Shown: positions 5,714 to 28,540 of the stretch, piece by piece
Layout of the letters: each line of letters starts with the position of its first letter
Numbering within the stretch: position 1 is the first letter of the stretch
DNA from: a virus
Strand: one strand, 5' to 3'
IMG/VR virus record: IMGVR_UViG_3300046532_001566
Location: 1-64,000 of that record
Length of the DNA: 64,000 nt
Notes under the pieces: model-generated
Databases searched by the model: none
Seen by the model: the letters and a program-made list of their open reading frames with translations, nothing else
What the model was told of the DNA's origin: nothing
Position numbers and translations under genes: made by a program

Positions 5714-6289
5714 TCATCCTTTGATCGTCATATGGCCTTCTAATTTCCAACGTTCTCTATTCAACTCTGTCCATGATTTTCCCTCTTCTTTAACAATAGC
5801 TTTCTTTCTCTCATACAAGCCAGGAGTTAGATCTTTATACAATCTATGAAATTGAGGTAACATTCCTTCCCTTGCTCCTGCTTTTAATCTAGGAGCATTA
5901 TCTGCATGGGCCATACTTGCAATACTAGTGCCTCCACATAGTACACTTTCTCTTTCAAGTTCATGTTGCAGGAGTGTATATAAATGTCTGCCTCTCCACT
6001 TATCTTCTGTCCAGATTAAAACAATCATTGCTTGTCTATTATACGAATGATATTCCCAAATGACTCCTCCTAAGAACTCCTCAGGATCTGTTGCAGTTGT
6101 TAAAAATATTGCTCTATGCGAACTTGCCGCAAGTTCATAAGGAGTCATACCCCAACCCTTTTCAAGTAAGAATAATGTTGCTTTATAGTAAGAAGCAGTT
6201 AAGGCTGGCTCTTGTCCTATTGTATCTGTGTGCCAGATTTGAACGTCCATTCCTTGTGCATCTTGTTTTACTGTTCCTTTACGCCTCAT
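5714..6289 (-). CDS. GNAT-family acetyltransferase
   Basis: IWTEDKWRGRHLYTLL (motif A-like), AHADNAP. Confidence 0.65.
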   Translation of the reverse strand: MRRKGTVKQDAQGMDVQIWHTDTIGQEPALTASYYKATLFLLEKGWGMTPYELAASSHRAIFLTTATDPEEFLGGVIWEYHSYNRQAMIVLIWTEDKWRGRHLYTLLQHELERESVLCGGTSIASMAHADNAPRLKAGAREGMLPQFHRLYKDLTPGLYERKKAIVKEEGKSWTELNRERWKLEGHMTIKG

Positions 6290-7602
6290 GTTGTCTCCTC
6301 ACTCCATGTTATCTTAAAATTTGAAAGATGGTGCCTAACATAATATTGAACCATAGGATCCATAATGTCTAACATAGTATAATCTGTTGTAATTCCAAAT
6401 CTATGAGAAGGTTTAGGATAAACATCAGTTATAACCGTTTGTCGCACAGAATTTTGTCCCATACTCTCTAACTTTAACTTAAAGTCACGATACCATACAT
6501 TATTATCTAGTTCGTAGATATAATCCCTTGCAACTTTTTTATAAGTGCCGGCGCCAAACCCAATCTTCTGACCGTTATTATTATTATTCATAGACCATTG
6601 CTGATAAGCCGGCCATAAGTACCAATTTTCAATTTTATTAATTGCTTTTTCCATATCATAACGATCATTATAATACATAGCACCACGCACTCCACAGTTA
6701 ATCATTTTAACATTAAAAATTAACCACCAAAAGAAATCATGTAAACTAATAACTGGGCAAGATGCTGTTTTTGCATTTAATGCATACTTGTCATATAATT
6801 TACGCCCAAACATAGGATCAGGATTTGGATTAGTTGGTATTGGAAATAAAGATGTATCTCCATACTGGAAATATGCTACCAATGCATCTTCGAATACACT
6901 AAAATGTGTATCCTTGTCGCTTAACTTATGTAAGTTATTTCTTACATGAGTTCGTTGTTCTGCTGTAAGTTTGTGACCTATTTTTTGTTCCCAGGCATGA
7001 TAAAAGTTAAGACCTAATACAGTGCCGTGAATACAATCTCCGTCGTCTGCTGTTACCGGTGTGTAACCTTGTTCAAGTAACATGTCATATTTGTTAATCA
7101 TAGAATCAATAATTTTAAATTTACCAAATATAAACTTACGCCAGTAATTTGGATTCTCTACTACTGCTTGAACACTTGTGCAGATAGCAACATTCTTAAG
7201 TTGTTCTTTTGTTAAATTTTTAATTAGAGCAGTTGTAATGATTGTTGAATCAATGCCACCTGAATACATAATAGCAAATTTCTCATTATTCTCATCAATG
7301 CGTCTAGCATAATCCATTGCCTGACTATCTGATGCTTCTGAAAATGTTCCAGTATAGGTTGAATCATATTGTATTAGTTTATACTTAGGTAAAATCTCAT
7401 CTGGCCAAGGTAGAGTCCATTCAGAACTATCTCTAGTTGAAAACCTATTAGGATTAATACGTCTAGCAAGATCAATTACAAACTTACCTCCAGGCCCTAC
7501 CTCATTATAAGTTTCCGTCCAAAAAGTGTTAGCTTCTGCTCCGTCCCAATTTACAGAAGAATAGTAAATCTTTGTATCTGCATTCATAGTATTAATGTTC
7601 AT
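6286..7602 (-). CDS. Asparagine-synthetase-like PP-loop ATP-dependent ligase (E1)
   Basis: YSGGIDS, ADDGDCIHG, DFFWW..F..K, YQQWS, K.K..S. Confidence 0.75.
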   Translation of the reverse strand: MNINTMNADTKIYYSSVNWDGAEANTFWTETYNEVGPGGKFVIDLARRINPNRFSTRDSSEWTLPWPDEILPKYKLIQYDSTYTGTFSEASDSQAMDYARRIDENNEKFAIMYSGGIDSTIITTALIKNLTKEQLKNVAICTSVQAVVENPNYWRKFIFGKFKIIDSMINKYDMLLEQGYTPVTADDGDCIHGTVLGLNFYHAWEQKIGHKLTAEQRTHVRNNLHKLSDKDTHFSVFEDALVAYFQYGDTSLFPIPTNPNPDPMFGRKLYDKYALNAKTASCPVISLHDFFWWLIFNVKMINCGVRGAMYYNDRYDMEKAINKIENWYLWPAYQQWSMNNNNNGQKIGFGAGTYKKVARDYIYELDNNVWYRDFKLKLESMGQNSVRQTVITDVYPKPSHRFGITTDYTMLDIMDPMVQYYVRHHLSNFKITWSEETT

Positions 7603-8411
7603 AGCAAGTACCCAGAGTAACCAGATAAATCTGTATCTGCTTGTGAAGTCTGTTTAGCTAAGTCTGCAGGTTCTGGATAATCTGGATTGTTTAAAATTGC
7701 GTAAAACATTTTACGCATAGGATAAGAATGAGGAGTATTGTTTTCCCTCCACATATCAGCAATCTTGTTCATTGCATCATCTACTGTATCTGCATTATAT
7801 AATATTCTACGGATCTCATTCTTAGGACCTAATGAAGATACTGTATTAGAACTATCTGCCGGAGTAGACATGCTAGTATCAACTTCCCCTGAAAGAAAAT
7901 CATTAACAAACTCTTCCATTGGTAAAAAGTTATGCACCATTTCAAATATCTTTGCAGTATGCCAGGTACGAATTACAAATTTTGCATATTCTGAGAATTC
8001 TATAAATGTATCGTATCCTTGTGTACCAGGAACATAATCTTTAGGCATTTGCAAGCATGGTACTAAGAATGGATCTTTCATTTTTCTAAAAACAGGAGTC
8101 TGTCTGCTAAACAACAATCCAGCAGAACCACCTATAATTTGTTTGTCGTTTACTGTAAAATTAGTAATGTTTCCGTTGTGTACATCAACCTTTTCATCTT
8201 TACCAATTACTAATACCGCAATAGCAGGCATCTTACTGCTTAATATCTTTGCACATTCAAATGCCGTGTAAGGATCAAATGTATCAACTGCGAAGCATCT
8301 GTCAACTCCCGGACTGTAAAATATATTACCATTAACTCTACGTCCTCTGGCATTCATATGGAAGAAGGATATCTTTTCGTTTATATTATTTCCCCAGGCC
8401 ACTGTACTCAT
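7599..8411 (-). CDS. Partner protein P1 of PP-loop ligase (hypothetical)
   Basis: ATGA-coupled to E1; likely start MSTVAWG. Confidence 0.65.
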   Translation of the reverse strand: MSTVAWGNNINEKISFFHMNARGRRVNGNIFYSPGVDRCFAVDTFDPYTAFECAKILSSKMPAIAVLVIGKDEKVDVHNGNITNFTVNDKQIIGGSAGLLFSRQTPVFRKMKDPFLVPCLQMPKDYVPGTQGYDTFIEFSEYAKFVIRTWHTAKIFEMVHNFLPMEEFVNDFLSGEVDTSMSTPADSSNTVSSLGPKNEIRRILYNADTVDDAMNKIADMWRENNTPHSYPMRKMFYAILNNPDYPEPADLAKQTSQADTDLSGYSGYLL

Positions 8412-8676
8412 CCTTTTTCTCATATTCTTTAGCAATGTCTTCTATTGCTTTCGCTAAGTGTGGCATACGTTTTAATTCTTCGTTGATTCTAATAATTCCG
8501 TGTGCGGCGTGAAACTTAAACAGCCAAGGAAAAATTGCATGAACGTAACTAGTAAACACATACAATAATAATCTACTACCATTATAGAACGAATGCCTGC
8601 AATGATATCCATAGGTCATATTGCTATGATCCAAATGGTGCAAGCCTCTAGCCCAGAATGGATATTTCTTTGTCAT
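8386..8676 (-). CDS. DUF6356-like small protein
   Basis: HL...NMTY..H...S...HAIFPWLF pattern. Confidence 0.6.
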   Translation of the reverse strand: MTKKYPFWARGLHHLDHSNMTYGYHCRHSFYNGSRLLLYVFTSYVHAIFPWLFKFHAAHGIIRINEELKRMPHLAKAIEDIAKEYEKKDEYSGLGK

Positions 8677-8718
8677 CTGTTTTATATATTACTTTATATT
8701 GTATATTTCTAGCCACAA

Positions 8719-9084
8719 TTAACTGGCTTGTCGAGTTATATAGTTAACCTTAATACGTTCAGGAGAGAAGTATTTCTCTACAACGCTTTGAGCTTTCTTT
8801 ATATCATATTCCATACAAGAAAAGACGTCAATATATAAGTCACCATTCTTATCAACAAAATGTCCTGTAATTGAACTAGTTTCAATTAACTGTACTAGAC
8901 TATGGCCAGCCGCATCTGGATCATGTGTAGCAAAATGTTCAATAATTGGTTCACCGTATGCCTGCATACCAATTGCAGGCACCAGTTCTAAAATAAAGTT
9001 TTTGATATTTTTTCCCGAACGTACTTGTTCTAGGTCTCCGTGCAAACAGTCAAATAGTGTATGATAACCCCAGTATTCTGACAT
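8719..9084 (-). CDS. speD: S-adenosylmethionine decarboxylase proenzyme
   Basis: GYHTLFD, QLIETSSITGHF, YIDVFSC; SD GGAG. Confidence 0.85.
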   Translation of the reverse strand: MSEYWGYHTLFDCLHGDLEQVRSGKNIKNFILELVPAIGMQAYGEPIIEHFATHDPDAAGHSLVQLIETSSITGHFVDKNGDLYIDVFSCMEYDIKKAQSVVEKYFSPERIKVNYITRQAS

Positions 9085-9171
9085 GAATTATATCTCCATT
9101 GAATAATTAATTCTATACTAATTGTACAACTATACTTAACCAAATAAGTCTAAAGTATGTTTTCCAATTTG

Positions 9172-9339
9172 TTATTTTCTAGAAGATTCTTTTATAAAAA
9201 ACAATCCAAAAAATACAGGCACTAACCATACCACTGATATATACACTATCGGATTATTGTAGTCATGCCATACAAACGAGTACAACACTACAAAAATGAT
9301 TGCTTGCAACACACCGGTAAAAGATATAATGTTCTTCAT
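9172..9339 (-). CDS. 55-aa two-TM membrane protein
   Basis: Manual ORF MKNIISFTGVLQAIIFVVLYSFVW...; TAAATA 4 nt upstream. Confidence 0.45.
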   Translation of the reverse strand: MKNIISFTGVLQAIIFVVLYSFVWHDYNNPIVYISVVWLVPVFFGLFFIKESSRK

Positions 9340-9380
9340 GGTATATTTAAAGTTAATGCAATAGTCGTTAAAGGTATAGT

Positions 9381-9587
9381 TTATGATTTTGCAGGCTTAG
9401 TAGTTGCAGATGCCTCTTTTTCAGGCTCTTTTTTCTTAACACGTCTGCCCCAGATATTAGTTGTAATATCTCCCTTTTCACCATAAGGAATTTTCTTAAT
9501 TACGCCACCCTTTGCTAAGAACGCATCAATTTCTTCTTTTGATGTGTTTTCTGATCTAGTTTTCTTCTTACTATTTTTATTGGCCAA
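9381..9587 (-). CDS. SutA RNAP-binding-domain-like small protein
   Basis: EEIDAFLAKGGVIKKIP resembles the SutA core (EEFLARGGKVQEI); TTG start with SD GGAG. Confidence 0.55.
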   Translation of the reverse strand: MANKNSKKKTRSENTSKEEIDAFLAKGGVIKKIPYGEKGDITTNIWGRRVKKKEPEKEASATTKPAKS

Positions 9588-9673
9588 TGTGTAACTCCAA
9601 ATGTGCTTGTTTCTAGTGTACTAATAATTATCGTTTAGAATAACAACTGTCTCGCCTAAATATAAATAGTAGT

Positions 9674-11094: not shown

Positions 11095-11200
11095 TCTGTT
11101 ATATTTTTTTTGTAATTCGTAAATTACATTAGACCAATAATCTCTGCTCCATTGTTCTCTACAAGTACTGTAAGCAATCCGGGCATTATTAATTAATCTA

Positions 11201-12537: not shown

Positions 12538-13464
12538 GTGATTAAAAAAGTATTAATGATTGCCGGAATAGGGGCAATTTTATCAACCGGAGCGTATGCT
12601 AAAGATATTGAATTTACAGTACATCATGGACCAGGTGGTCCAAGTGATCAAACAACAAGACTTATTGCAAATACTATAAAAAGTAAAACTAATCAGTATA
12701 ATGTAGTAAATCGTCCAGGTGCGGCTGGCAAGATTGCAATTAGACAAATGTTAAAAACTAAGACTAGTATTATCACAGCTACTATGGCTCAGATCTATGT
12801 TACAAATACATTAATGTTTGATAAACTAGAATATAACCCAAAAAATAGTTTTAACTTAATTGGTGTAGTTGCTACTATGCCAAATGTACTTGTTTGTAAT
12901 AACGAAAGAAAATTCTTTACAGTATCGGATTTAGAAAAATATGGAAAAGGAAAAATACTATTTGGTGCCGCGGGTTATGGAAGTAGTGAACATCTTGCTA
13001 CAGAAGTACTTAGACAGAAACTTACTATTAAGAGTATAGTGATTCCATATGCAAAAGGCGGAACGACTGCTTTAACAGATTTACTTGCAGGAAATATTGA
13101 TTGTATGTTTGCAAACTATCCAACTGTTAAAAATCATATTGGAGAAAAGATTACAAGTATTATGTCAAGTCATGAATTAGGTTTAGATATTCCAACTTGG
13201 TATGATGTTTATACAGAAGATTTTCCGTTTGTTAGTCCAATTGGATTAATTGCTTCTGCTAGAACTAGTCGAACGGATTTACGCAACATTAAACAAGATA
13301 TTAATAATACGTTTAAGAATCCAGATTTCGTAAAAGGATTAAAAGATATTGGATTATTTCCAGTAGCTAGTACAAGTATTAGTTCCAGACTAAAGGTATT
13401 AAGAAATAATGATGCCTTAAGAATCTACATTAGTAGAAACAACATTCCTCTCAAGAAAGACTAA
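12538..13464 (+). CDS. Tripartite tricarboxylate transporter receptor (TctC/Bug family)
   Basis: Signal peptide (..GAYA), PGGPSDQTTR, VVNRPGAAG, GYGSSEHL, IPYAKGG..ALTDLLAGNID. Confidence 0.85.
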   Translation: MIKKVLMIAGIGAILSTGAYAKDIEFTVHHGPGGPSDQTTRLIANTIKSKTNQYNVVNRPGAAGKIAIRQMLKTKTSIITATMAQIYVTNTLMFDKLEYNPKNSFNLIGVVATMPNVLVCNNERKFFTVSDLEKYGKGKILFGAAGYGSSEHLATEVLRQKLTIKSIVIPYAKGGTTALTDLLAGNIDCMFANYPTVKNHIGEKITSIMSSHELGLDIPTWYDVYTEDFPFVSPIGLIASARTSRTDLRNIKQDINNTFKNPDFVKGLKDIGLFPVASTSISSRLKVLRNNDALRIYISRNNIPLKKD

Positions 13465-14771
13465 CGCATAAAAATATTAGAGCCTGGCGCCATTACTCGC
13501 AATCTACCAACTTCGTAGTTATGCAATACTGGTGCCAGGCCATCTGGACGCATGCCAATTAATCGTTCATCTTCTGAAAACGTATTCATTGCACTTGTAT
13601 TCCATTCTGTATTATCCGGGTCTTCAACATAACGTAAGAATGGCTTTAAGTTGTCAGACACATACTTTAGTCCTTCCATCCAAATTTGATATGCTTTGGT
13701 ATCAGAATACCCAATCCTAAACCATTGGTCAAATTCACTATCCCAATCTAATACTGCTTTCTGAGCCTGAAACCACCGCTTATCCCAAGTTGAATAAAGT
13801 AAGTTACGAAGTAATGGTTCATGCATTAACCTATAAACTTTACCAGTAGAATTTTCACTAGTAAAATACTGTTGCATTGAAGGATTTAATTCTAAATAAT
13901 TTTTAACAACATGAGCTTGTTTAATAAGCAAAGGAACACAATCCGGAGACCAGTAAAAGAACTCTACAGTAGAATTAGGATAGTCTTTTAAATGCTCTGC
14001 TACAGTAATCATATTAGTACTTCTGTCTGCAAATCTAACAAAGAATCGTCCTTGATGGACTAATGTTCTAGGCTTTTCAATGCCTACTATTAATCCAATT
14101 TTTTTATCTTTATCAAATCTCTTACGAACTTCCATAAAATGCAAATAGTTAAATCTTGTAATACCAGCTGGATTTAATCCTTCACGTTTATCTAACACCC
14201 AACTAGCATCACCTGACGCTTCTAGGCTTTCAAACAAATAATCACTCTGGTCAGTAATAGTAATCGTAGTCAAAGGCATTAATTTTTCAATTTCTTTTAA
14301 CCTAGGAATTGTATTTCTTACATGCTCACTTTCTGGCGCATCGTTAGCTTTAGTACTTGAGTCAATAACTAAGCCCTTACTTGCTTTAGACATAGTGTTA
14401 ACAATAACCTCATCAATATGTAGATTCTGTCTTTCAAACGCCTTAAAGATATTCCAAGAGTCACTTCCGCCACTAAAACTTAAAATTAAATAATCATACT
14501 TTGTTCTCAAATCAAATGCTCGGGCATCATACAGTTGATCTAATGTTTCTGTTGGTTCAACACTCCAGTCATGAGCTCTAAATTCCTTATTATTAAATAT
14601 CCATTGTACAGGCTTGTTTACTTTAACTGAATGTAACCCTGCTCTAATTTTAGAATCAAATTCAAATCCATCTACAATGTAATATCCAAGTTTCTTATTG
14701 ATATATGGATTTATAATTATCTTAGCCTCTGGTATAGATCCATTTGGATCTAGTAATGGAGTTATTACCAT
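13461..14771 (-). CDS. PP-loop (adenine nucleotide alpha-hydrolase) protein (E5)
   Basis: ILSFSGGSDS, GIEKP, EFFYWSPD. Confidence 0.7.
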   Translation of the reverse strand: MVITPLLDPNGSIPEAKIIINPYINKKLGYYIVDGFEFDSKIRAGLHSVKVNKPVQWIFNNKEFRAHDWSVEPTETLDQLYDARAFDLRTKYDYLILSFSGGSDSWNIFKAFERQNLHIDEVIVNTMSKASKGLVIDSSTKANDAPESEHVRNTIPRLKEIEKLMPLTTITITDQSDYLFESLEASGDASWVLDKREGLNPAGITRFNYLHFMEVRKRFDKDKKIGLIVGIEKPRTLVHQGRFFVRFADRSTNMITVAEHLKDYPNSTVEFFYWSPDCVPLLIKQAHVVKNYLELNPSMQQYFTSENSTGKVYRLMHEPLLRNLLYSTWDKRWFQAQKAVLDWDSEFDQWFRIGYSDTKAYQIWMEGLKYVSDNLKPFLRYVEDPDNTEWNTSAMNTFSEDERLIGMRPDGLAPVLHNYEVGRLRVMAPGSNIFMR

Positions 14772-15718
14772 TATACTTTTCCTTTATATTGATGCCATCT
14801 ACGAGTCTTATCTGAACCAAAGTCAGTAAGAAGTGCTATTAGTTCATCTCTGTCTATAAAAGCACATTTGTTCTTATAGTTATGTCTTAATCTATTATCA
14901 GGAGGATTCATAATCCAATCTATATTATTTGCACTAACGTCTTTTGGAAATAACTCTAGTTCGTCCTTCCAGTATAAACCATATAGTAAAGGTTTAACAT
15001 AATATTCCCATGAAAAAATTAATGGAGGTGCTTCTCCAGACTTTTTCTCTACTAATCCGTTACCAACAATATATCTAATAGACTTGCAATATCCTTCTAC
15101 TATAGGATCGTTTAATAATGCTAACGTAAATTCATTATTATCTGACCTACGATCAATAGCTACAATTTTTCCTACCCTATCTACTTCTCTAAGTGCCCGC
15201 TGACTTGCTACTTCTATTGCAGTCCAGCTTTCCATACAGTATGTTTTCTTATTACGGAATATAAAATCAAAACTTTCAATACCTTGCAATATGTCTACTT
15301 CACTTGGTAGTTGCTTTAAGAACATTTTCATTAAATGATGTTCAGCTGGTATTCCTGTTTTTATTGCTAACTTGTTAACTTCTTCTTTATGTTCGTCTGG
15401 ATTAATTTCAACAACTAAAGTTTTGTTGTTATATTTCTTATCTAATATATTAATGTTGTTAAGTTCGTTGTCATTGTAGCCGGGCCAATGGCAGAAAGCT
15501 GTAGAATATGGCAAACCGCAAGAATCAAAAGTGTGTAGTAATACTTGGCTGTCTAATCCGCTACTAAGACTAATTGTTACATGAGTATCTCTTGCATCTG
15601 CTTCTTCTGCTAAATTGGTGCAAGCAATTTCCATTTCATCTCGCATATTGCCAACTGGTCTAGTGCAAGGTGTGTACTCTACAAAGAATTCGTCATTGAT
15701 GTCTATACCATACTTCAT
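14771..15718 (-). CDS. PP-loop protein, divergent (E6)
   Basis: ISLSSGLDSQ, C-terminal KPLLY...FPK; TAATG-coupled to E5. Confidence 0.65.
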   Translation of the reverse strand: MKYGIDINDEFFVEYTPCTRPVGNMRDEMEIACTNLAEEADARDTHVTISLSSGLDSQVLLHTFDSCGLPYSTAFCHWPGYNDNELNNINILDKKYNNKTLVVEINPDEHKEEVNKLAIKTGIPAEHHLMKMFLKQLPSEVDILQGIESFDFIFRNKKTYCMESWTAIEVASQRALREVDRVGKIVAIDRRSDNNEFTLALLNDPIVEGYCKSIRYIVGNGLVEKKSGEAPPLIFSWEYYVKPLLYGLYWKDELELFPKDVSANNIDWIMNPPDNRLRHNYKNKCAFIDRDELIALLTDFGSDKTRRWHQYKGKV

Positions 15719-15756: not shown

Positions 15757-16857
15757 TTAGGAGAAGCTATTTGTTTGAAGTTTGTAAGGAGTTATATCAA
15801 AATGTGGAGGAAGAAATTCATAATTAGAATTTAATGCTCCAACATGTTCAATCGTCCTAAAGACATTTATAAGGCTTGCAATTTTAACTTTATTATCAAG
15901 ATATTCTTGATCTTTAGTAAAATCAAAGATAAATTCTTTTGCCGTAAACTTATATGTACTCCAATCTTTTGTAATTTTCTTATCTGGATTTGCAATACTC
16001 CATCTTTGAAAATCATCATTCATAAAGAACTGTATATAATTATTATCAAAGAAATCTTGATCTAAGGGAAAGGACATAAATTTACCCATATTAAAAAGCC
16101 TATAATATACGTTCTGCCATTTATAACAAAAATTATACCACCAAAAGAAATCTTTAAAATCTATAATTTCACAGGGTTGTTTTGCTTTAATTTGATCGTC
16201 CATAATGTCATACCAAATTTTAGCGGCTCGTTCAGACATTCCTTTATACATAAAAAATGCACCAACATTTTCAAAATTATATGGTTGAAACATAGCTCCT
16301 CGACCGTTATCCCATCTTTCAATTGCTTGATATATGTCCGTGCCAAACAACTGATCACACCCCTCACCACTAATAACAATATGGTCTTTGTTAATATGAC
16401 TAAACATAGTTTCACTTGCTATAATTTCAATCTTTCCTCTAATATATGTATAATAGAATCTAGGATTTTCTCTAATAGATTGAGCATTCATACAAATTTT
16501 AAGGTTGCTGTAATCCCCTTCAGATGCTATTATCATTGCTGTTAAAAGCGATGTACTATCAATGCCTCCGCTCCATAATATTAGGCATGGTTTATTTGTT
16601 GTTTTACTTAGATTAAGTAATTCAATTCCTCGAGCTATTGAAATTTCAGAAAATGTTCCAACATTAGTTTGTTCTTCTGGAATAGGAAGCATTACCTTAT
16701 AATTGTAAGGTGTCGTAACATGCCCTGTGCGATCGCATAAGTTAACAGTAGGAGCAATAACCTTATAAATTTCGTAGAAATCTTTTTGATCCTGTGTTCT
16801 TTCAGTTGCAGTATGAATTGCACTAGCAACGGTTGATAGTAATAATTCCCCCATCAT
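15757..16857 (-). CDS. Asparagine-synthetase-like PP-loop ligase (E2)
   Basis: WSGGIDS, SGEGCDQLFG (AsnB SGEGADE-like), DFFWWYNFCYKWQ, KVKIAS. Confidence 0.8.
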   Translation of the reverse strand: MMGELLLSTVASAIHTATERTQDQKDFYEIYKVIAPTVNLCDRTGHVTTPYNYKVMLPIPEEQTNVGTFSEISIARGIELLNLSKTTNKPCLILWSGGIDSTSLLTAMIIASEGDYSNLKICMNAQSIRENPRFYYTYIRGKIEIIASETMFSHINKDHIVISGEGCDQLFGTDIYQAIERWDNGRGAMFQPYNFENVGAFFMYKGMSERAAKIWYDIMDDQIKAKQPCEIIDFKDFFWWYNFCYKWQNVYYRLFNMGKFMSFPLDQDFFDNNYIQFFMNDDFQRWSIANPDKKITKDWSTYKFTAKEFIFDFTKDQEYLDNKVKIASLINVFRTIEHVGALNSNYEFLPPHFDITPYKLQTNSFS

Positions 16858-17552
16858 ACTGCCCCTAATCTTACATTGCTTTTAACGTCTATTAATATTT
16901 TACGAAAATCCTCTAATAATTCTACATTCATCATTATAGGTACATACTTTGTCCACATTGCATACGCACGAATACGTTGCTTTCTAATTGGCAACAGTTG
17001 TCTACATATTTCATCGTACGACTGTTCAGGAGTTAAATTATTAAAAGATCCATATTCAACAATTTCTTGTACATAACTATTTGTTGCCGGATCGCACTCA
17101 TTAATTGCATCTCGTAATTCAGGATAGAATCGTATAGCCATATCATTTTCAGGTGGCGTAAAAGTTAATGACGACATGATGTTTTGCCATACATTAGCAT
17201 ACATTACTTCAGCTAGATGAGCATCCATTTTGTCTGCAAGATATTCATCTGTTACATCCTCAGGTGGAATAAGTTCAAGGTAATGTCTACCAGTTTTTGA
17301 TGGTTCATTTCCATGAGTTTTATTATATACCATTCTATATAGTTTTTCTGTTTTATCAAATTCGTAATTGGTATTAAAAAATAATGCTTTAACCTGTTTA
17401 TGAGAATTATTCATCCAATCGATTTCTAATCTATAAAAAGATTTACGCATAACAAGTGCCGTAATAACGTCCATATTTGAAGTTCCTATTAGAACTCCGT
17501 TATTTCTACTGTCAATTATTAACCCGTATTGTGATGGAGCTGATGTAAACAT
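16854..17552 (-). CDS. Partner protein P2 of PP-loop ligase
   Basis: LIIDS..NGVL, FYP.L...INECDP..NSY, RAYAMW; ATGA-coupled to E2. Confidence 0.7.
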   Translation of the reverse strand: MFTSAPSQYGLIIDSRNNGVLIGTSNMDVITALVMRKSFYRLEIDWMNNSHKQVKALFFNTNYEFDKTEKLYRMVYNKTHGNEPSKTGRHYLELIPPEDVTDEYLADKMDAHLAEVMYANVWQNIMSSLTFTPPENDMAIRFYPELRDAINECDPATNSYVQEIVEYGSFNNLTPEQSYDEICRQLLPIRKQRIRAYAMWTKYVPIMMNVELLEDFRKILIDVKSNVRLGAV

Positions 17553-18202
17553 TATTTAGATCCCATTAAATACGTTCTATTAAGCATAGTATGATTATCG
17601 TCAGTAGGTCCCCAATCGCCATCTGGATGATATGCAATAATTTTCATTTCAGAATCAGTTGTTCTAAATCTATGATATTCACGTTCTTCAATACAAAAAA
17701 TATTACCAGCTTCTAACAAATTATATACTCCATCTGCTAGTTCAGCAATACCAGAACCACTTGCTACTAATCCTAATCTTACACTAGGATGGATATGAAA
17801 CGTTTGATCAATTCCTTTAGGAAAGTGTAGAAGATTAACACTAGGATCTCCAGCACGACTTGGATAGATTAATAAGCTATCACTGCACCCATCAATATAA
17901 CAAAGACGGCCACTATCTTCAATTGGACCACCTAAGTTATTCTGATGCATATGTCCTAGTCTAGTAAAGAATACTGCTGTTCCGGTTACTGAAATACTGT
18001 ATTCAGTTTTATCTGTGTAAGAAAAATATTCATTTGTTGTAGCAATCCAGCCATTTGGCAATGTAACATTACCTGTTAACACAAATCCATATGTTGAACT
18101 ATATGCTTCTGCATCCTTAGTGTCATCTGTTATGTTTTCTGCATATGAAGGATACATTGTATTTCGTTTGTCAACAATCCCGGTTGATTTTAGTAGTTGC
18201 AT
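17552..18202 (-). CDS. Bicupin / metal-binding cupin protein
   Basis: YIDGCSDSLL, FHIHPSVR.G.V.SG.G, EYHRF, YHPDGDWGP. Confidence 0.75.
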   Translation of the reverse strand: MQLLKSTGIVDKRNTMYPSYAENITDDTKDAEAYSSTYGFVLTGNVTLPNGWIATTNEYFSYTDKTEYSISVTGTAVFFTRLGHMHQNNLGGPIEDSGRLCYIDGCSDSLLIYPSRAGDPSVNLLHFPKGIDQTFHIHPSVRLGLVASGSGIAELADGVYNLLEAGNIFCIEEREYHRFRTTDSEMKIIAYHPDGDWGPTDDNHTMLNRTYLMGSK

Positions 18203-18462: not shown

Positions 18463-18515
18463 TTTAGTAGATCTCCATTCTTATTTATATAAGAATATTA
18501 GTTCCGTTATTACCT

Positions 18516-19922: not shown

Positions 19923-20597
19923 TTATTCTTCTTTTGCTAATAGATTGCATAGTCGTTCCCATGTATTTCTAGTACTTTTAGTTGTTTTGTCTACTACTTT
20001 ACATGTTACTGTTATTCGTAGTCCGTCACCTTGTATAACATGATGAGGCAAGTCTGTTCTTACTAATGCACTTGAACACGAAGTAGCAGTAGACCAAATT
20101 GGTAGAGGAATCTTACTCCAATCCCGATGCTGTTGTTTAAACTCGACAACCCAAGGCCAAGTATAATCAATAAAGTCATTACCGTCTAGATTTTTATGTA
20201 TCTCCTCATATCCATCTGTAGTATCCGGAAACCATCTAACAATTCCAGGTGAGGTTGTTAATTCGTAAAAATTTAACCTAGTTTCTAATCTAGCAGAATC
20301 GCTATGTATATTCCAATCATAAGTGTTTGCATTAACAATAAAGATACCCATTGTTTCTGCTTCTAAATTAAATTGGTCAAGGAATTTGTTTGCATGTTGA
20401 CGAGTATCTTCTAACGGATCACCAGTCGAAGTTGCTGTATTAAACCACAATCTGTCACTTAACGCATGTTTTTGTTTTAGATTTTTAATTATCCCGTTGT
20501 TAAGTTTATCAACATCTATTTTAGGAAGTGATAATGTAAGAGGTATAAAGAAATCTTTATGTGCTTGTACTGATTGTTCTAAACTGTCAGATACCAT
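19923..20597 (-). CDS. 2OG-Fe(II)/cupin-like oxygenase
   Basis: IHSD...RLNF...VRTDLPHHV...RITVT. Confidence 0.65.
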   Translation of the reverse strand: MVSDSLEQSVQAHKDFFIPLTLSLPKIDVDKLNNGIIKNLKQKHALSDRLWFNTATSTGDPLEDTRQHANKFLDQFNLEAETMGIFIVNANTYDWNIHSDSARLETRLNFYELTTSPGIVRWFPDTTDGYEEIHKNLDGNDFIDYTWPWVVEFKQQHRDWSKIPLPIWSTATSCSSALVRTDLPHHVIQGDGLRITVTCKVVDKTTKSTRNTWERLCNLLAKEE

Positions 20598-21318
20598 ATA
20601 TCTTCTTCCGTGGTATTGGAAATCCGTCTATATGGTCGATGTACTGATCGTATAACTTGTGTTCAGTTGGAAGTCCGTGTAATATATGCAAGGCATTTTG
20701 AGAGCCAAATGGTAGAATACTACGTTCTGTATACTGAAATACTTCTTTAGGCAAAAAGTCTACTACTAAATGTAACCTATTTGTATCTCCGAGATTCTTA
20801 ATATGATGTTTCCTTTTATTATTAAAAATAAAACTATCTCCAACTTTAAATTTAGGATCTTTGGACTCTGATGCAAATCTAAATAATACTTTATTATTTG
20901 TCTCTAATACAACATGACACCTTGTTGCGTAATCACTATAAAAATGATTATCCGTATGTGGTAAAATACTTGCGCCAGGAAAAACCACATTTAATTCTGC
21001 ACCAAATGGTATCCAATCTTTATGCTCTGTTGCCTTGTGTAAACTGACCCATAATTCTTTAACTATGTCGTTTGTTGAAGAGTGTAATTCTGATTGCATT
21101 AATCCAATAATGCTGTGATGATTAATAGGAGAATAATAAGGAACAAACGAACAATATGGAAATTTGTACCAACCACATTCTGCAAAGAAACTCTCGGACT
21201 TACGTTCTCTCCATACTGATTTGCTACGATAAAACGTATCAGTTAAGTTTTTTAATTGACCAGTACGAAAGACTGTTTCCAAATATTGATAATTTGGATA
21301 TTGCTCAATAAGCGGCAA
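20587..21318 (-). CDS. Aspartyl/asparaginyl beta-hydroxylase-like 2OG-Fe(II) oxygenase
   Basis: PGASILPHTD, RCHVVL.TN, FNNKRKH.I.N, RLHLVVD. Confidence 0.8.
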   Translation of the reverse strand: MPLIEQYPNYQYLETVFRTGQLKNLTDTFYRSKSVWRERKSESFFAECGWYKFPYCSFVPYYSPINHHSIIGLMQSELHSSTNDIVKELWVSLHKATEHKDWIPFGAELNVVFPGASILPHTDNHFYSDYATRCHVVLETNNKVLFRFASESKDPKFKVGDSFIFNNKRKHHIKNLGDTNRLHLVVDFLPKEVFQYTERSILPFGSQNALHILHGLPTEHKLYDQYIDHIDGFPIPRKKIYGI

Positions 21319-21387: not shown

Positions 21388-22299
21388 TTAGAACGTGAAG
21401 CTTAAACCTGTGCGTAAGGTAGCATCATCTGTAGTTAAATCATAGTCTACATTTGTAAAGAATACCGAACTCTTTGCAATTTTAAACTGTGACTCAAGTG
21501 TAGCATTACCATCATCAAGAGCAACATCTGTATCCTGATAACCGGCAAGTACTGTTAGGTTAGTAGAAACATCATATGATCCAGCTAATTCATAACCAAC
21601 TGCATCATTTGCTTGAGTATCATCATCTAATGCTGTTACACTTGCAAATAAGCCAGTTTTGCCTATTTTATGAGCAACACCAAAGCCATAGTAGTCTGAA
21701 GAGTTAATTTCGTCTCTTGCGTAAGTTACTCCGACTCCTTTGTAACCAACACCTACTTGATAAAGATCTAAATTATGGTTAGCGGCATCATCGGTCATTT
21801 GTGTCTGAAACCCTACATCAATGCCGTTGAATGAATTAGTATATTTTAAACTATTATTCATATAAAATGAAGTCTTTTGTACACCTTGATTACCAGCTCC
21901 GTAAAATACATCTGCTTTATCAGTAAATGTGTCTACTAGACTCATTGTGCGACCAATAGCTAAGTCACCATATTTGTCATTACCTACACCAATATAACCA
22001 AATCGGGTAGTAATGTCGTCTGCTCCGTCTGCACTTGAAAGATCAGCATCAAGTGAAATTTCTCCAAATACATAAACAGGCTGTTGTGTCTTAAATTGTA
22101 ATCCGAGCTTACTACTTGATGATTTGATTTCTGTATCAACGTTTGTAGCAGTTGAGCTTTCAACATATGCCCGGATTTCTCCATATGTTGTAATGTCTAC
22201 TCCATCGACTTTAGGGATTACGAGCTTATCAGCTTCCGCGGCCCATGCCGTAGAGATACCAGCGAACAAAATGATCGCAGTTAAGGGCAATATTTTCAT
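21388..22299 (-). CDS. Gram-negative porin
   Basis: Signal peptide (AWA), YGEIR, TRFGYIG...YG.L.IGR, NSLKY, C-terminal Phe. Confidence 0.85.
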   Translation of the reverse strand: MKILPLTAIILFAGISTAWAAEADKLVIPKVDGVDITTYGEIRAYVESSTATNVDTEIKSSSSKLGLQFKTQQPVYVFGEISLDADLSSADGADDITTRFGYIGVGNDKYGDLAIGRTMSLVDTFTDKADVFYGAGNQGVQKTSFYMNNSLKYTNSFNGIDVGFQTQMTDDAANHNLDLYQVGVGYKGVGVTYARDEINSSDYYGFGVAHKIGKTGLFASVTALDDDTQANDAVGYELAGSYDVSTNLTVLAGYQDTDVALDDGNATLESQFKIAKSSVFFTNVDYDLTTDDATLRTGLSFTF

Positions 22300-23118: not shown

Positions 23119-23126
23119 GAGGAAGT

Positions 23127-23734: not shown

Positions 23735-23735
23735 G

Positions 23736-24596: not shown

Positions 24597-24640
24597 ATTA
24601 ATCTCTCTTTCTTGCATCTATGCATGATACTTATGTCAAA

Positions 24641-24668
24641 GAAATAGGAGGCCGAGACCTCCTATTTC
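24641..24668. terminator. Intrinsic terminator hairpin
   Basis: GAAATAGGAGG-ccgaga-CCTCCTATTTC. Confidence 0.7.
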
Positions 24669-24690
24669 AAATCAGGTATGAAACTACTGT

Positions 24691-24987
24691 TTATACAGTA
24701 ATACCAAGTCCCTGTGCCTTATAGGCCAAGGCAACCATACGCCTAGAAGGTGTGCCATGTGTATATTCAGTAACAGCAACACCGTTTCCGGCTGTACGTT
24801 GGTTTGCATAGATAGCATAACCACGTTGGCGAATGTTCGATACAGTCGCGGTAGGATTTGCAATACCAAATCGCTTCTTAATTGCTGATTTAGTAAGAGC
24901 TTGCTTCTCTAGCACTAGTGCGTGAAAGAGCTTGCCTTGTTTTGTCTTAAGGTCGAAAGCCTTAATTGACTGGGTAGTTTTTGACAT
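24691..24987 (-). CDS. Small winged-HTH DNA-binding protein
   Basis: LTKSAIKKRFGIANPTATVSNIRQRGYAI; promoter TTGACT-N18-TATAAT at 25038-25067. Confidence 0.65.
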   Translation of the reverse strand: MSKTTQSIKAFDLKTKQGKLFHALVLEKQALTKSAIKKRFGIANPTATVSNIRQRGYAIYANQRTAGNGVAVTEYTHGTPSRRMVALAYKAQGLGITV

Positions 24988-25070
24988 AAATTTTCCTTTA
25001 TCAAAAGTAGTTAAAAGTTCGTTTTAACTATGTTACTATTATAACACATCATTGGTGTTGAAGTCAACCT

Positions 25071-26129
25071 CTATTTTAGCCATTTTGCAATAGAATTGTC
25101 CGGATTGTAAAATAACGCTGAATCAAAATCTTTAAAATTAATACGGTTCATATCTGTATCAATTGCACTAGCACTTTGGTGACCAAAATACAATGTAGTT
25201 GACTGGTGTTTGATTTTGTAATCATAATAACTTTGATCCTTAGTGTAATCAAATATAATATCTTTGGGAACCAATTTTAAAGTTTCTTGAGAAGTTAAAT
25301 TTGGTTTATGATTTACACTCCAATTTTGAAAATCATAAGAACTAAAGAAAGTTTGAAGCACATTACCTTTTGCAATCCTAGGCAAGAATTTAACTCCAAT
25401 CATTTGCCATTTAAAATTAAAATTGTGCCACCAACACCAGTCAAACATAGTGCTTATAGGTCTAGGTGAAAACTTGGTAGTTTGGTGGTAAATTTCATAG
25501 ATGCATTTATGAGTGTCTGAATCAGAAAGGCCCATAAACTCAAATACTCTAACAGTATTTTCATATGAATATGGTTCAAGTAATAAATCACGTTGTTGTC
25601 CTCTTAACAAAATATTTGCAAATGGAGAACCAAATAATTGATCAGCATGTTCAGAATTTACTATAGTTCCAGGTAAAACTCCTGCACTTGCTTTTAACAT
25701 GAATTCTTCAGTAGCCATTATATTAAACTTACCTAAGATAAATTTATTGTAAAATAATGCATATTCTCTTACACTATCTTTATTGCATATAATAGTAATA
25801 TTATCTAGTGGTACGTCTGCTTGTAAAAATGAGACTACAGAACATGTACTGTCTATTCCTCCTGACCAAAGTAAATATATTTTATCATTTATATTAACTA
25901 ACTCTTTGGCCCTATTAACGCAACACTCTTCAAAGGAAATTGCACTAGTATTAAAGTTAGGTAATTCATATTCTGGTAGTAGTTTGGTATGATAATAGAA
26001 GTCAACAGTTTTAGTACGATCTATCAGAAATGCATTTGAATCATATTTCCACATATTATCGTATATAATGAGGTCGGCAGGAGAATTATTAGTTATAACC
26101 CGTTGGCCCTGATGATATATTAATTGCAT
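25071..26129 (-). CDS. Asparagine-synthetase-like PP-loop ligase (E3)
   Basis: WSGGIDS, SEHADQLFG, DWCWWHNFNFKWQ, KIKHQS. Confidence 0.8.
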   Translation of the reverse strand: MQLIYHQGQRVITNNSPADLIIYDNMWKYDSNAFLIDRTKTVDFYYHTKLLPEYELPNFNTSAISFEECCVNRAKELVNINDKIYLLWSGGIDSTCSVVSFLQADVPLDNITIICNKDSVREYALFYNKFILGKFNIMATEEFMLKASAGVLPGTIVNSEHADQLFGSPFANILLRGQQRDLLLEPYSYENTVRVFEFMGLSDSDTHKCIYEIYHQTTKFSPRPISTMFDWCWWHNFNFKWQMIGVKFLPRIAKGNVLQTFFSSYDFQNWSVNHKPNLTSQETLKLVPKDIIFDYTKDQSYYDYKIKHQSTTLYFGHQSASAIDTDMNRINFKDFDSALFYNPDNSIAKWLK

Positions 26130-26851
26130 TACATTCCTGATCGTAATTTAAATTCTGCTAATGCTATTGTTTCTTGCATAAGACTTTGGTCGCTAAAATC
26201 TAATGAGTTTACATGTGATATAAACCATTTCCAATACGCATGTAAACGCATAATTGTAATATTTGTAGAACTTACCACCATTTTACATTCTTGGTATGCT
26301 TGTTTAACTGGAAGGCCGGCTGAAATTGCCCAGGCTTCTAAACCAGGTGTATAATAATTGTTCTCAGGAATACATTTGTCAATTTCTGTAGTCATATAAG
26401 GAATAAACACATCATCAACAGTACTATGTACTACCCTGCCAGCATATCGTTCTAATTTTGTTTCAATTGAAGCTAATACATGCTGACGTCTATTTGCTAA
26501 TTGTCTAGATACATTAAATTGTTCTGTAACATTATCCATTTTTTCTATATCAAAAATAATTTCTTGCTCAGGAACTACTTTTGCTACGCTTAATTCTGCT
26601 GACGGAATAGCATATCCTTTTTCTGAACCAGATGTTGTTAATATATAATTATTAGTTGAGCTTCTGTTATAATTTCTTATAATTTCATTGTGCTTTCCAG
26701 GAAGTTGTGCTACCATTAAAGACGAATTTGGTATGCCTTCTGCTAATGCGTTAATAACTGCTGGGCTAACTGAAACTGTTAGTATTCCAAATGTTTGTTG
26801 ATCTACTAACATTGAGGATATATTTGCTTTTTTTGAAAATGTATCAAGCAT
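26129..26851 (-). CDS. Partner protein P3
   Basis: LVDQQTFGILT, FIPYM..EIDKC.P.N.YY, RLHAYW. Confidence 0.7.
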   Translation of the reverse strand: MLDTFSKKANISSMLVDQQTFGILTVSVSPAVINALAEGIPNSSLMVAQLPGKHNEIIRNYNRSSTNNYILTTSGSEKGYAIPSAELSVAKVVPEQEIIFDIEKMDNVTEQFNVSRQLANRRQHVLASIETKLERYAGRVVHSTVDDVFIPYMTTEIDKCIPENNYYTPGLEAWAISAGLPVKQAYQECKMVVSSTNITIMRLHAYWKWFISHVNSLDFSDQSLMQETIALAEFKLRSGM

Positions 26852-27896
26852 TAATTAATCTCCTTAAAGTATTATCTGCATTGTAGTAATCTATTAAATT
26901 TAGATCTCTTACAGGAATTCTATCCCATTTCTCGGTTAAACCTGCAGGTGAAGATAGGCTGTAATATAATGTAGATGAAGCAAACTTCTCTTTAGTTTTC
27001 CAATAGTTTCCATCTAATGTATAATCTAATATAATCTCTTTAAATTCTGATTTTAAGTTTAAAACATTACCTGTTTGCTGTATGCTAGTATTTTGAAAAT
27101 CATTACTAGAGTAAAAAGTAATAAGTTTAGTTGGATCTGCCATTCTAACTGCTAATTTCATAGCTATTGTTTGCCATTTAAAATTAAATCCGTGCCACCA
27201 ACACAGATCCCACATAGTCTTAATAGGCCTTGGACTTTTTTCAATAGTCATATTGTAGATATTAATTAATATATCAATATGATATATTGGTACTCCTGCA
27301 CTTAGTAAGAATTTCTCAAAATTTTCATCATTATAAGGAAGCCCTAACATTGTTCTTCCTAGTTTCTTAACAACCAAGTCTGAAATTGGTGATCCTACTA
27401 GCTGATCAGCATGTTCAGCTGATATTAACAATCCGTTAAATAAATTAGACTGACCTACTAATAGCATTAATTCCTCTGTTGCTAATATTTGATAGGAAGG
27501 TAATATATTGGTTTTATAAAACCGAGGATACTCTTTAACAGAATCTTGATTCAGTACAACTACTATTTGATCATTAGGTGCATGTTTCATAAAAGAAATA
27601 AGCATTAACGTACTATCAATGCCGCCGCTCCACATTACATATAATTTTTCTCCAGTCTTAACAAGTTCTTTAACCCTGTTGTCTGCACACTCTTGCCAAG
27701 ATAAAGGTGTTGTTGTCGTTGTTAGCATTGGAAATATATTGTTTTCTGAAAACGGAAAAGATATTGTATCTGTTCTATCTACTAAGAAGGCATCTGCATC
27801 AATGTTAAACAAAGAACGAAATAACGTAATATCTTTATAATCATCATATATGTTAGAGTGTTTTAATTCAGTACTAAAGACATAATTTAATTTCAT
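26844..27896 (-). CDS. Asparagine-synthetase-like PP-loop ligase (E4)
   Basis: WSGGIDS, AEHADQLVG, DLCWWHGFNFKWQ, KEKFAS. Confidence 0.8.
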   Translation of the reverse strand: MKLNYVFSTELKHSNIYDDYKDITLFRSLFNIDADAFLVDRTDTISFPFSENNIFPMLTTTTTPLSWQECADNRVKELVKTGEKLYVMWSGGIDSTLMLISFMKHAPNDQIVVVLNQDSVKEYPRFYKTNILPSYQILATEELMLLVGQSNLFNGLLISAEHADQLVGSPISDLVVKKLGRTMLGLPYNDENFEKFLLSAGVPIYHIDILINIYNMTIEKSPRPIKTMWDLCWWHGFNFKWQTIAMKLAVRMADPTKLITFYSSNDFQNTSIQQTGNVLNLKSEFKEIILDYTLDGNYWKTKEKFASSTLYYSLSSPAGLTEKWDRIPVRDLNLIDYYNADNTLRRLINA

Positions 27897-28540
27897 AAAT
27901 GCACCTTGTTAGTCCAGGTGCTGTGTGCTTCTCTTATTGTAGACAATTCTTCCTTTACCTCAGTAGCTAACATACCAAATGCAGTTTTTATATCAACACC
28001 TCGTATTTTAGCCCAATCTTTTATAATATCAGTATATTCATCATTTTTATAATCACATTTCTCAAGTTCTCTTTTTATAAAAGGTAAAAATATAGCATCT
28101 CCCATAAAACGTTTATCTTGGGCACTATCGGCTATTAGTTTTGTTTCATTAATTCTATATTCGTATCTTAATTTAAATGCAAAATGCCGTGCTTCTATCC
28201 ATTCTGGAGTAATGTCGTCTAGGTCCATTTCTTCTATACCATATATTCCTGGACCTTTAGTTGTTTTTACTATTTTTCCAAGGTTTGCAGTAGATGACGG
28301 CATTAGGCTGTTATGTGCTTTTACTAAAATAAAATTTGCATCTTCATTAAATTTTTCATGCATTCCTATAAGATTTAATATTTCGGCATTAGTTGATTCA
28401 ATTATCATTAATTCTGCATTAGGTATAGTATAACAAATTGCATTTGATAAACTTACTGAATTACATAGAGTTAAAATTCCGTTGGTTACCGAATCTACTA
28501 CTAGAAATTTATTATTCTTTAATGCATATGTTGATAGCAT
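27893..28540 (-). CDS. Partner protein P4
   Basis: VVDSVTNGILT, FLPFI..ELEKC...N.EY, EAHSTW. Confidence 0.7.
   Translation of the reverse strand: MLSTYALKNNKFLVVDSVTNGILTLCNSVSLSNAICYTIPNAELMIIESTNAEILNLIGMHEKFNEDANFILVKAHNSLMPSSTANLGKIVKTTKGPGIYGIEEMDLDDITPEWIEARHFAFKLRYEYRINETKLIADSAQDKRFMGDAIFLPFIKRELEKCDYKNDEYTDIIKDWAKIRGVDIKTAFGMLATEVKEELSTIREAHSTWTNKVHL

Follow-up and report, generated by a model that had tools for sequence, protein, structure and literature searches.

The first 64 kb of an IMG/VR viral contig of 116 kb (IMGVR_UViG_3300046532_001566; this stretch of 64,000 nucleotides (nt) is referred to below as the window) carries four gene pairs, each consisting of a gene for a PP-loop enzyme with motifs of the asparagine synthetase AsnB (E1-E4) and, directly upstream, a gene for a cognate partner protein (P1-P4). 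We propose, with moderate confidence, that each pair represents a two-component ATP-dependent amide ligase, in which an adenylating E subunit would be combined with a non-catalytic specificity partner P and would often work together with a cupin. As CheckV estimates the completeness of the 116-kb contig at only approximately 35%, the source of the window is a fragment of an uncultured jumbo phage. The contig encodes T4-like replication functions (a class Ia ribonucleotide reductase, UvsX, a DnaB-like helicase and another helicase), while the window has a G+C content of 32-38% and contains three tRNA genes and one transfer-messenger RNA (tmRNA) gene. The genes of the finding, i.e. the E/P modules and their neighbours, are all on the minus strand.

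Four overlapping gene pairs

The eight genes that constitute the pairs are as follows (lengths in amino acids, aa):

6286-7602, minus strand: E1, putative glutaminase-less AsnB-like PP-loop ligase of the E1-type clade (410-440 aa), within the clade having P1-type partners
7599-8435, minus strand: P1, partner of E1, P1-type family; start at TTG 8435 or ATG 8411
15757-16857, minus strand: E2, putative AsnB-like PP-loop ligase
16854-17552, minus strand: P2, partner of E2, P2-P4 family
25071-26129, minus strand: E3, putative AsnB-like PP-loop ligase, sister of E4 (39% identity)
26129-26851, minus strand: P3, partner of E3, P2-P4 family; copy modelled by AlphaFold2
26844-27896, minus strand: E4, putative AsnB-like PP-loop ligase; copy modelled by AlphaFold2
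27893-28540, minus strand: P4, partner of E4, P2-P4 family

An original prediction, made from the nucleotide sequence alone, had described four paralogous PP-loop enzymes, each overlapping its upstream partner by 1-4 nt, and both descriptions are borne out. The coordinates of the open reading frames (ORFs) give overlaps of 4 nt (P1/E1), 4 nt (P2/E2), 1 nt (P3/E3) and 4 nt (P4/E4), and the full-length alignment of E1-E4 reveals the predicted motifs in all four enzymes, namely [WY]SGGIDS, an AsnB-like xE/DxxD(Q/C)xxG, D[FWL][FC]WWxxFxxK and a terminal Y...KxKxxS. BLASTP comparison of the enzymes produced E-values of 8e-75 (E3-E4), 1e-35 (E2-E3), 6e-30 (E2-E4), 1e-17 (E1-E2), 2e-14 (E1-E3) and 1e-6 (E1-E4), and paralogy, as judged from these similarities, is far beyond chance. 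Exactly four E genes are present in the whole 116-kb contig. Additionally, E4 overlaps P3 by 8 nt, and P4-E4-P3-E3 therefore constitute one tight block; the tmRNA gene of the window (29798-30144, minus strand, tag ANDNFASEDFALAA) is located between this block and a gene for a DctP-like protein.

The PP-loop of E1-E4 begins at residue 90-115, and the second residue (N, M, Q or K) is Cys in none of them, which leaves no room for a glutaminase domain, in agreement with the predicted lack of an N-terminal Cys glutaminase domain. The partners encoded in the window (215-278 aa) are less uniform. Homology of P3 and P4 is clear (BLASTP 5e-20), while P2, which had been described as clearly homologous to both, is only marginally similar to them in direct BLAST comparison (1e-3 and 0.04) and joins them through shared relatives and a profile. 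For P1, the reservation that it was at best a distant relative proved justified, as neither BLAST nor hhalign, applied to whole profiles and to the N- and C-terminal halves separately, detected homology to P2-P4. Such a link is hinted at solely by a weak series of matches in the N-terminal 70 residues, which connects two further partner clusters, cB and cluster 9, to each other at 36% probability and cluster 9 to the P1-type family at 94%.

Predicted fold and conserved residues of E

The AlphaFold2 model of E4 (predicted local distance difference test, pLDDT, 92.7; predicted template modelling score 0.91) was compared exhaustively with 48,161 chains. The top five matches, with Z of 12.2-9.1 over 181-260 residues, were all AsnB-class synthetase domains:

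TsnB9 hydroxyamidotransferase (7ylz): Z 12.2 over 260 residues
beta-lactam synthetase (1jgt): Z 11.9
human ASNS (9b6c): Z 11.2
carbapenam synthetase (1q15): Z 10.8
E. coli AsnB (1ct9): Z 9.1

Other PP-loop folds (FAD synthase, GMP synthetase, PAPS reductase, TilS, NAD synthetase, LarE and Cap9) had Z of 8.6 or below, with Cap9 (9nto_B) at 5.5, and the tRNA-modifying folds gave 7.4 and 6.0-6.1 (TilS), 6.5 (NcsA) and 5.4 (TtuA) as against 9-12 for the AsnB class. Foldseek, which had been suggested as a check and for which one E and one P were folded, returned the same order for E4, with the AsnB class first at E-values of 3e-4 to 1e-3. The first 60 residues of E align to the end of the AsnB N-terminal domain, while the remainder of that domain is missing.

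In an alignment of 71 diverse E members, S90, G91, G92, D94 and S95 of the PP-loop are invariant, as are W233 and K302, while R41, E122, N123, D164, G168, W234, K240, Q268, W270, K282, Y298 and K304 are conserved in at least 90%; the AsnB-like ExxDQxxG and KxK motifs are likewise conserved in at least 90% of these proteins. Family models, however, do not claim them: neither E1-E4 nor P1-P4 are matched at threshold by any Pfam, NCBIfam, PHROG or PADLOC model. The cut-off of Pfam Asn_synthase (PF00733, 21 bits) is missed by E1 (12.7 bits) and E2 (14.5 bits), and E3 and E4 are not matched. This model is also the only recurrent sub-threshold match among the 71 E relatives (20 of them, with E-values no better than 7e-4), and the Pfam QueC model matched a single member, at 0.029. 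No NCBIfam or Pfam model of the tRNA-modifying families (TilS, MnmA, TtuA/NcsA) matched E at threshold, and a sequence-profile search of the PDB produced matches confined to the surroundings of the PP-loop. On the evidence of the modelled fold, which upholds the predicted assignment, E belongs to the AsnB structural class, as a stand-alone enzyme that lacks a glutaminase domain and retains an apparently intact adenylation site; in sequence it forms a separate family.

The partner proteins

A profile built from P2-P4 and three relatives retrieved 260 cluster representatives (186 at an E-value of 1e-10 or better), all of which are free-standing proteins of 200-245 aa, and an alignment of 128 sequences of this family contains no invariant or near-invariant column. 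The AlphaFold2 model of P3 (pLDDT 94.4) consists of an alpha/beta domain (residues 11-105) and a bundle of long helices (residues 110-238), with disorder confined to residues 1-3 and without a flexible tail. Foldseek identified no match to this model in the PDB, and an exhaustive structure search returned merely generic three-helix-bundle chains for the C-terminal half (Z of at most 8.7). Comparison with predicted viral structures yielded uncharacterised phage proteins (template modelling score 0.68-0.77) and weak matches to DUF4376 proteins (E-values 0.13-1.2), while the corresponding Pfam model (PF14301) matched nothing in the contig at an E-value of 10 or below and none of the 128 family members. 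The ESM Atlas gave nothing usable for P3, its Atlas model having a pLDDT of 0.38. The idea that P represents a split-off glutaminase domain was considered and rejected, as the P3 model does not have the N-terminal nucleophile (Ntn) hydrolase fold and no Ntn or AsnB chain was among its matches.

Residue 2 is variable both in the P2-P4 family (L, N, K, S, F and others) and in the P1-type family (T, K, W, S, G and others), and the C-terminal residues are unconserved in both. P looks well folded, as judged from the P3 model, and non-catalytic, as judged from the lack of invariant columns in the alignment. Homologues of P1 were found directly upstream of at least 45 E1-type genes. Overall, the gene upstream of E belongs to at least five families without detectable sequence relationship, encoding proteins of 74-285 aa:

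P1-type: 45 loci, plus its relative cluster 9
P2-P4 type, to which hhalign connects clusters cB and 36 (93-98% probability)
127-aa family: Bacteroidota
165-aa family with an apparent membrane helix: Saprospiraceae
268-aa family
many singletons

Distribution, coupling and co-inheritance

In a collection of 5.8 billion proteins 433 relatives of E were identified, none of them named. E loci number 341 in IMG/VR and 111 in cellular genomes, and the system, which had been described as phage-encoded, is not confined to phages. Cellular isolates with E include Aquimarina, Tenacibaculum, Neolewinella, Duganella, Comamonas and Xanthomonas, while the metagenome-assembled genomes include bacteria of the candidate phyla radiation, Chloroflexota, Bdellovibrionota and others. 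A gene-neighbourhood survey, as had been proposed for IMG/VR with the original prediction, covered 160 fetched loci, viral and cellular, and the window, together containing 185 E genes. A gene on the same strand ends at most 150 nt upstream of E in 172 of the 185 cases, and in 69 of those the overlap is exactly 4 nt. The predicted co-conservation of partner and enzyme withstands this survey, because the partner is kept with the enzyme in phages and in bacteria.

When partner type was mapped on a tree of 168 E proteins, 23 changes were required, versus 98.5 with shuffled labels. P1-type partners are associated with a single, well-supported clade, which comprises 61 E proteins and includes E1. 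The E clades follow partner type, as expected from the cognate pairing that had been predicted, whereas the partners do not constitute one family, as is evident from the list above. E3 and E4 are sisters in this tree and E2 stands alone on a long branch; the copies in the window therefore represent three old lineages and one duplication (E3/E4). Tandem arrays of two or three pairs are also present in other phages.

No fusion of a P2-P4-type partner to E was found, an absence which in itself is weak evidence. At one locus of the sample (L065:18-1814), the E domain of a 598-aa ORF comes after a helical region and a Gly-Pro-Thr-Gly repeat of collagen-like type. The N-terminus of the ORF matches the P1-type profile when cut out (1.5e-4) and not within the whole protein, and the ORF may be a partner-E fusion or the product of a miscalled start.

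Among cultured phages, tblastn with E1 and P3 found no match, and E4 matched Pseudomonas phage Cygsa01 only. In this phage (locus L165; PP179332.1, 11421-14448) two PP-loop genes bear the annotation MnmA, and ahead of each stands a hypothetical ORF (278 aa and 90 aa, respectively). The MnmA annotation is probably wrong, because the arrangement fits the partner-E pattern and the fold comparison does not support MnmA either. Additionally, in a number of P2-like prophages or tailocins (L111 from Xanthomonas sp. GPE 39, L149, L098, L118 and L096) the pair is located directly after the baseplate wedge/J genes and a tail-fibre gene.

RNA genes were also observed in the vicinity of pairs. Arrays of 4-22 tRNA genes lie directly beside E1-type pairs in L012, L014, L037, L039, L040, L055 and L063, and in six further viral loci (L015, L016, L017, L052, L053 and L060) E has a tmRNA gene at a distance of no more than 6 kb. 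ARAGORN identified tRNAs with the anticodon CTA at L015:10422-10497 and L017:10079-10153, on related phage contigs, which could be amber suppressors, and a tRNA with a four-base anticodon (ttga) at L039:1324-1397.

Recurrent neighbouring genes

The original prediction had proposed tailoring by the products of neighbouring genes. Of these, the cupin and the GNAT-type acetyltransferase proved to be recurrent and coupled neighbours, and S-adenosylmethionine decarboxylase (SpeD) was found in five loci, whereas a methyltransferase was not found among the neighbours in the window. The neighbouring genes in question are:

5714-6289, minus strand: GNAT-type acetyltransferase, coupled to E1 by a 4-nt overlap
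8386-8676, minus strand: 96-aa ORF without assigned function, two genes upstream of E1 (cluster 17)
8719-9084, minus strand: SpeD, first gene of the E1 operon region (Pfam AdoMet_dc 1.8e-16)
13461-14771, minus strand: PP-loop protein of 436 aa (SGGSDS) following E2, of a different subfamily; cluster in 9 loci
14771-15718, minus strand: PP-loop protein of 315 aa (SSGLDS) following E2, of a different subfamily; cluster in 7 loci
17552-18202, minus strand: cupin with a 3-His site, encoded by the first enzyme gene of the cupin-P2-E2 operon (Cupin_2 8e-6, narrowly missing the Pfam cut-off)
30232-31269, minus strand: DctP-like solute-binding protein (Pfam DctP 1.6e-54), no signal peptide; second copy at 34846-35952, minus strand

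The cupin (about 215-230 aa) is the commonest third gene, being present in 53 loci (43 cellular, 9 viral and the window) from phages and several bacterial phyla, where it directly follows E or else precedes the partner. Across 55 homologous sequences H136, H138 and H177, which constitute the 3-His metal site, are invariant, together with Q133, R142, C106, Y102, H192 and H204. Neither the cupin nor the bacterial partners have an above-threshold match in Pfam, PHROGs, PADLOC or NCBIfam, and the ESM Atlas returned only unnamed, mostly viral cupin clusters. The 1335-aa protein P0317 unites approximately 320 unassigned residues, an E domain (327-639), a Methyltransf_11 domain and the same cupin (1072-1324; 1e-64), and constitutes the strongest evidence that E and cupin share one substrate. 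A second protein, P0318 (900 aa), has the same beginning and comprises the N-terminal region, the E domain and Methyltransf_11. The unassigned N-terminal region spans 320-390 aa in these fusions, which suggests that the region ahead of E can belong to the enzyme.

The identity of the GNAT-type protein is indicated by a profile of eight homologues, which matches the GNAT structures 2aj6 (1e-6) and Naa30 (4e-5). Its cluster (cluster 8) recurs in 18 loci, on the downstream side of E1-type genes; on the upstream side, the SpeD cluster is found three genes away in 5 loci and cluster 17 at position -2 in 10 loci. After E1-type pairs, other phages encode DctP-like or TctC-like proteins, of which the window has two and one, respectively. 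In 22 viral loci the DctP-like cluster (cluster 4) is represented downstream of the E1-type gene, one to three genes away, and a hydrophobic leader is absent from all of its members; in 25 loci its proteins were observed to start at the mature domain with M..IRWVIAHEP. These proteins are probably cytoplasmic, as they are devoid of a signal peptide, and the DctP-like protein is possibly an associated ligand binder. TctC-type proteins of the same phages, including that of the window (12538-13464, plus strand), have normal signal peptides.

The two PP-loop proteins encoded after E2 have only the PP-loop region in common with the E profile and are not accompanied by a partner gene. The region also encodes a dCMP deaminase and a P-loop kinase. 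Genes for a class-3 lipase (4322-5101, minus strand), an AspH-like Asp/Asn beta-hydroxylase (20587-21318, minus strand) and a Gram-negative porin (21388-22299, minus strand) are situated among the modules and do not recur beside E in other loci. Sigma-70-like promoter sites are not enriched in number (83 observed versus 80.7 expected), nor is the sequence TATAAATA (9 occurrences versus 12.8 expected), one copy of which is present at 18482-18489, just upstream of an 84-aa ORF that precedes the cupin gene.

Proposed mechanism and alternative explanations

In the proposed two-component ligase, E would be the catalytic subunit, binding ATP at the PP-loop and adenylating a carboxylate, after which an amine would displace AMP. 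Because E is without a glutaminase domain, the nucleophile would be free ammonia or, more probably, a specific amine. P would be made in step with E through the overlapping stop and start codons, and would serve as a specificity or scaffold subunit, standing where the N-terminal domain sits in AsnB, beta-lactam synthetase and lasso cyclases and supplying recognition of the substrate or of the nucleophile. Such a position presumes that P and E bind each other; complex prediction for E4 and P4, both given as alignments, returned a score of 0.02, which speaks neither for nor against binding. As the pair is inherited as a unit and the partner is swappable, the four copies most likely differ in substrate. 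The cupin (with P2-E2) and the GNAT-type enzyme (with P1-E1) would modify the molecule on which the ligase acts, probably a small carboxylate metabolite that may be joined to a polyamine-type amine in the SpeD-P1-E1-GNAT operon. A carboxylate theme is suggested by the DctP-like (without signal peptide) and TctC-like binding proteins beside E1-type pairs in many loci.

A number of observations weigh against this proposal. P evolves faster than E, with identities to the window copy of 43% versus 58% in locus L007 and 33% versus 47% in L021, and the upstream families, which show no detectable relationship and of which one has a membrane helix, fit interchangeable substrates as well as they fit subunits. 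In the P2-like elements mentioned above, the short tail-fibre protein is 342 aa in length and the pair occupies the usual place of the fibre chaperone. Furthermore, a tRNA or tmRNA gene is located within 6 kb of the pair in 18 of the 60 viral loci scanned, a raw fraction not set against a base rate for these phages, and like the tail-fibre context this hints at targets of another sort. The association of binding proteins with E1-type pairs may reflect inherited synteny within one phage lineage.

The faster evolution of P, together with an upstream gene that is always present yet variable in family and length and a P without invariant catalytic residues, would be accounted for if P were a protein substrate, E adenylating a small carboxylate, or a carboxylate on P, and linking it to P. 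Such a reaction could be modelled on the action of Cap9 on CdnD and of QatC on QatB, or on leader-less maturation of the kind known for ribosomally synthesised and post-translationally modified peptides (RiPPs), with the cupin as tailoring oxygenase. There is precedent in PP-loop enzymes whose neighbour is the second substrate (PMC13376578), PDB 9nto is a weak fold match (Z 5.5), and the AspH-like hydroxylase at 20587-21318 could be cited in its favour. We nevertheless regard this explanation as unlikely: P has neither a conserved Gly2, nor a conserved N- or C-terminal residue, nor a long terminal tail, and its high-confidence model is that of a compact two-domain protein. In addition, the region ahead of E in the long fusions shares a polypeptide with the enzyme domains, and the need for a stoichiometric substrate would be unusual for an auxiliary metabolic module. 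The proximity of tRNA arrays and tmRNA genes, in the window itself as well as in the loci scanned, would instead suit an E that amidates the carboxylate of a nucleic-acid base under guidance by P, either in phage DNA, as CmoY does, or at a tRNA wobble base (of the cmo5U or cm5U type). The dCMP deaminase and the P-loop kinase of the region are compatible with this, as is the long fusion of E, methyltransferase and cupin-fold domain. That fusion recalls ALKBH8, which combines a methyltransferase with a dioxygenase and acts on cm5U. Moreover, a free-standing AsnB-like ligase that acts on DNA is already known from a phage, the characterised CmoY (PMC12783734). Base amidation is nonetheless rather improbable, since E and CmoY have the PP-loop alone in common and only CmoY passes the Pfam Asn_synthase cut-off; the 116-kb contig, representing approximately 35% of the genome, contains no homologue of CmoA, C5-cytosine methyltransferase or thymidylate synthase; E and P are acidic (isoelectric points 5.3-6.2); and the chromosomal cupin-partner-E cassettes of Bacteroidota show no phage or DNA-modification context.

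A role in virion maturation, in which a fibre-chaperone-like P would assist E in cross-linking or amidating a tail fibre or another structural protein, appears quite improbable. It draws on the P2-like prophages of Xanthomonas, Comamonas, Ralstonia and Undibacterium, in which baseplate J, the short tail-fibre protein, P and E follow each other, on the position of the E1 operon just upstream of the lipase gene and a putative fibre-like gene, and on the matches of P3 to DUF4376 proteins. The end of a tail module is, however, a common site for cargo genes, and most loci, like the Bacteroidota chromosomal cassettes and the long fusions, have no virion context. DUF4376 is a domain of tail-fibre chaperones (PMC7289586, PMC10579305); its matches to P3 are weak and its Pfam model finds nothing in the contig. 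Finally, the E proteins could be ordinary housekeeping enzymes, such as ammonia-dependent asparagine or NAD synthetases or MnmA-like tRNA thiolases, with unrelated ORFs upstream, as the shared PP-loop motif and the MnmA annotation of the two Cygsa01 relatives might imply. This we consider very improbable, in view of the family cut-offs that E does not reach, the Z of 5.4-7.4 for folds of the NAD synthetase, TilS, LarE and TtuA type as against 9-12 for the AsnB class, the coupled upstream gene in 172 of 185 cases and the four to six copies per phage, which do not fit a housekeeping function.

Returning to the two-component amide ligase, a broader view may tentatively be put forward, in which a large, mostly viral family of such ligases employs fast-evolving, interchangeable partners to program what a common AsnB-like core joins, and in which jumbo phages would make new amide-linked metabolites (e.g. 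polyamine conjugates) with a dedicated 3-His cupin, GNATs and cytoplasmic binding proteins. The family is large, as is evident from the numbers of E relatives, P-type cluster representatives and IMG/VR loci given above, yet it has neither a name nor a family model, and no description of the partner, the cupin or the cassette was found in the literature searched or in family libraries, as the original prediction had surmised. With it, the asparagine-synthetase superfamily, already the source of beta-lactam, carbapenem, lasso-peptide and DNA-hypermodification chemistry, would gain an architecture that is split and programmed by a partner. Four pairs and two more PP-loop enzymes within 23 kb amount to a heavy investment in such chemistry during infection, and the product, be it a metabolite, a modified protein or a nucleic acid, is likely to represent new biology of phage takeover or counter-defence. 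The E enzymes could also become tools for the formation of amide bonds.

Comparison with known systems

Only one characterised phage enzyme of a broadly comparable kind was found, namely CmoY of Synechococcus phage S-B43, by which glycine is ligated to 5-carboxymethylcytosine in DNA (PMC12783734). Similar to E, it is phage-encoded, free-standing, glutaminase-less and AsnB-like, and it is ATP-dependent with glycine rather than ammonia as amine. E is no close relative of it, however: CmoY (271 aa) is matched by Pfam Asn_synthase at 52.5 bits, is encoded between CmoA and CmoX and has no P-like partner. The E profile found no match in the S-B43 genome at an E-value of 1 or below, and hhalign aligned E and CmoY over 21 columns around the PP-loop, at 23% probability. 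Neither the CmoA family (carboxy-S-adenosylmethionine synthase) nor the CmoX family (C5-cytosine carboxymethyltransferase) matches the 116-kb contig, i.e. approximately 35% of the genome.

The QatC-QatB (PMC13376578) and Cap9-CdnD (PDB 9nto) systems resemble the present pairs in that the gene for a PP-loop adenylating enzyme adjoins a gene for a protein without a known family, and in these systems the enzyme forms a complex with its partner. QatC and Cap9 probably belong to another PP-loop subfamily than E, which is without the QueC zinc cluster, and their acceptor amine is that of the partner's conserved Gly2 on a long N-terminal tail (PMC13376578). P has neither such a conserved residue nor such a tail, and the analogy that had been drawn to QueC-type enzymes, in which a small molecule is conjugated onto the partner, lacks this defining feature. 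Furthermore, QatC and Cap9 are parts of bacterial defence systems with additional components, and PADLOC models match nothing here.

Lasso cyclases also belong to the AsnB class; they employ a peptide amine in place of ammonia, and a distinct protein for recognition or processing assists them. Unlike E, they keep the N-terminal domain. The short precursor peptide and the transglutaminase-like protease or RiPP recognition element that go with them were seen neither in the window nor in the fetched loci.

With the AsnB-class synthetase domains in general, E shares the SGGxDS PP-loop, an ExxDQxxG motif that the original prediction had likened to one in AsnB, and a C-terminal KxK lysine motif, and on the strength of the modelled fold its expected chemistry would be adenylation of a carboxylate followed by amide formation. 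E differs from this class in having no N-terminal glutaminase-type domain, with only approximately 60 residues before the core, although even the non-glutaminase members of the class keep such a domain. It further differs in its private invariant residues (WW..F..K) and in an obligatory separate partner without a known fold. The E pairs are best called a split form within the known AsnB-type class, because E, while falling below the family cut-off and lacking the N-terminal domain, has the predicted AsnB fold and, probably, the chemistry of that class.

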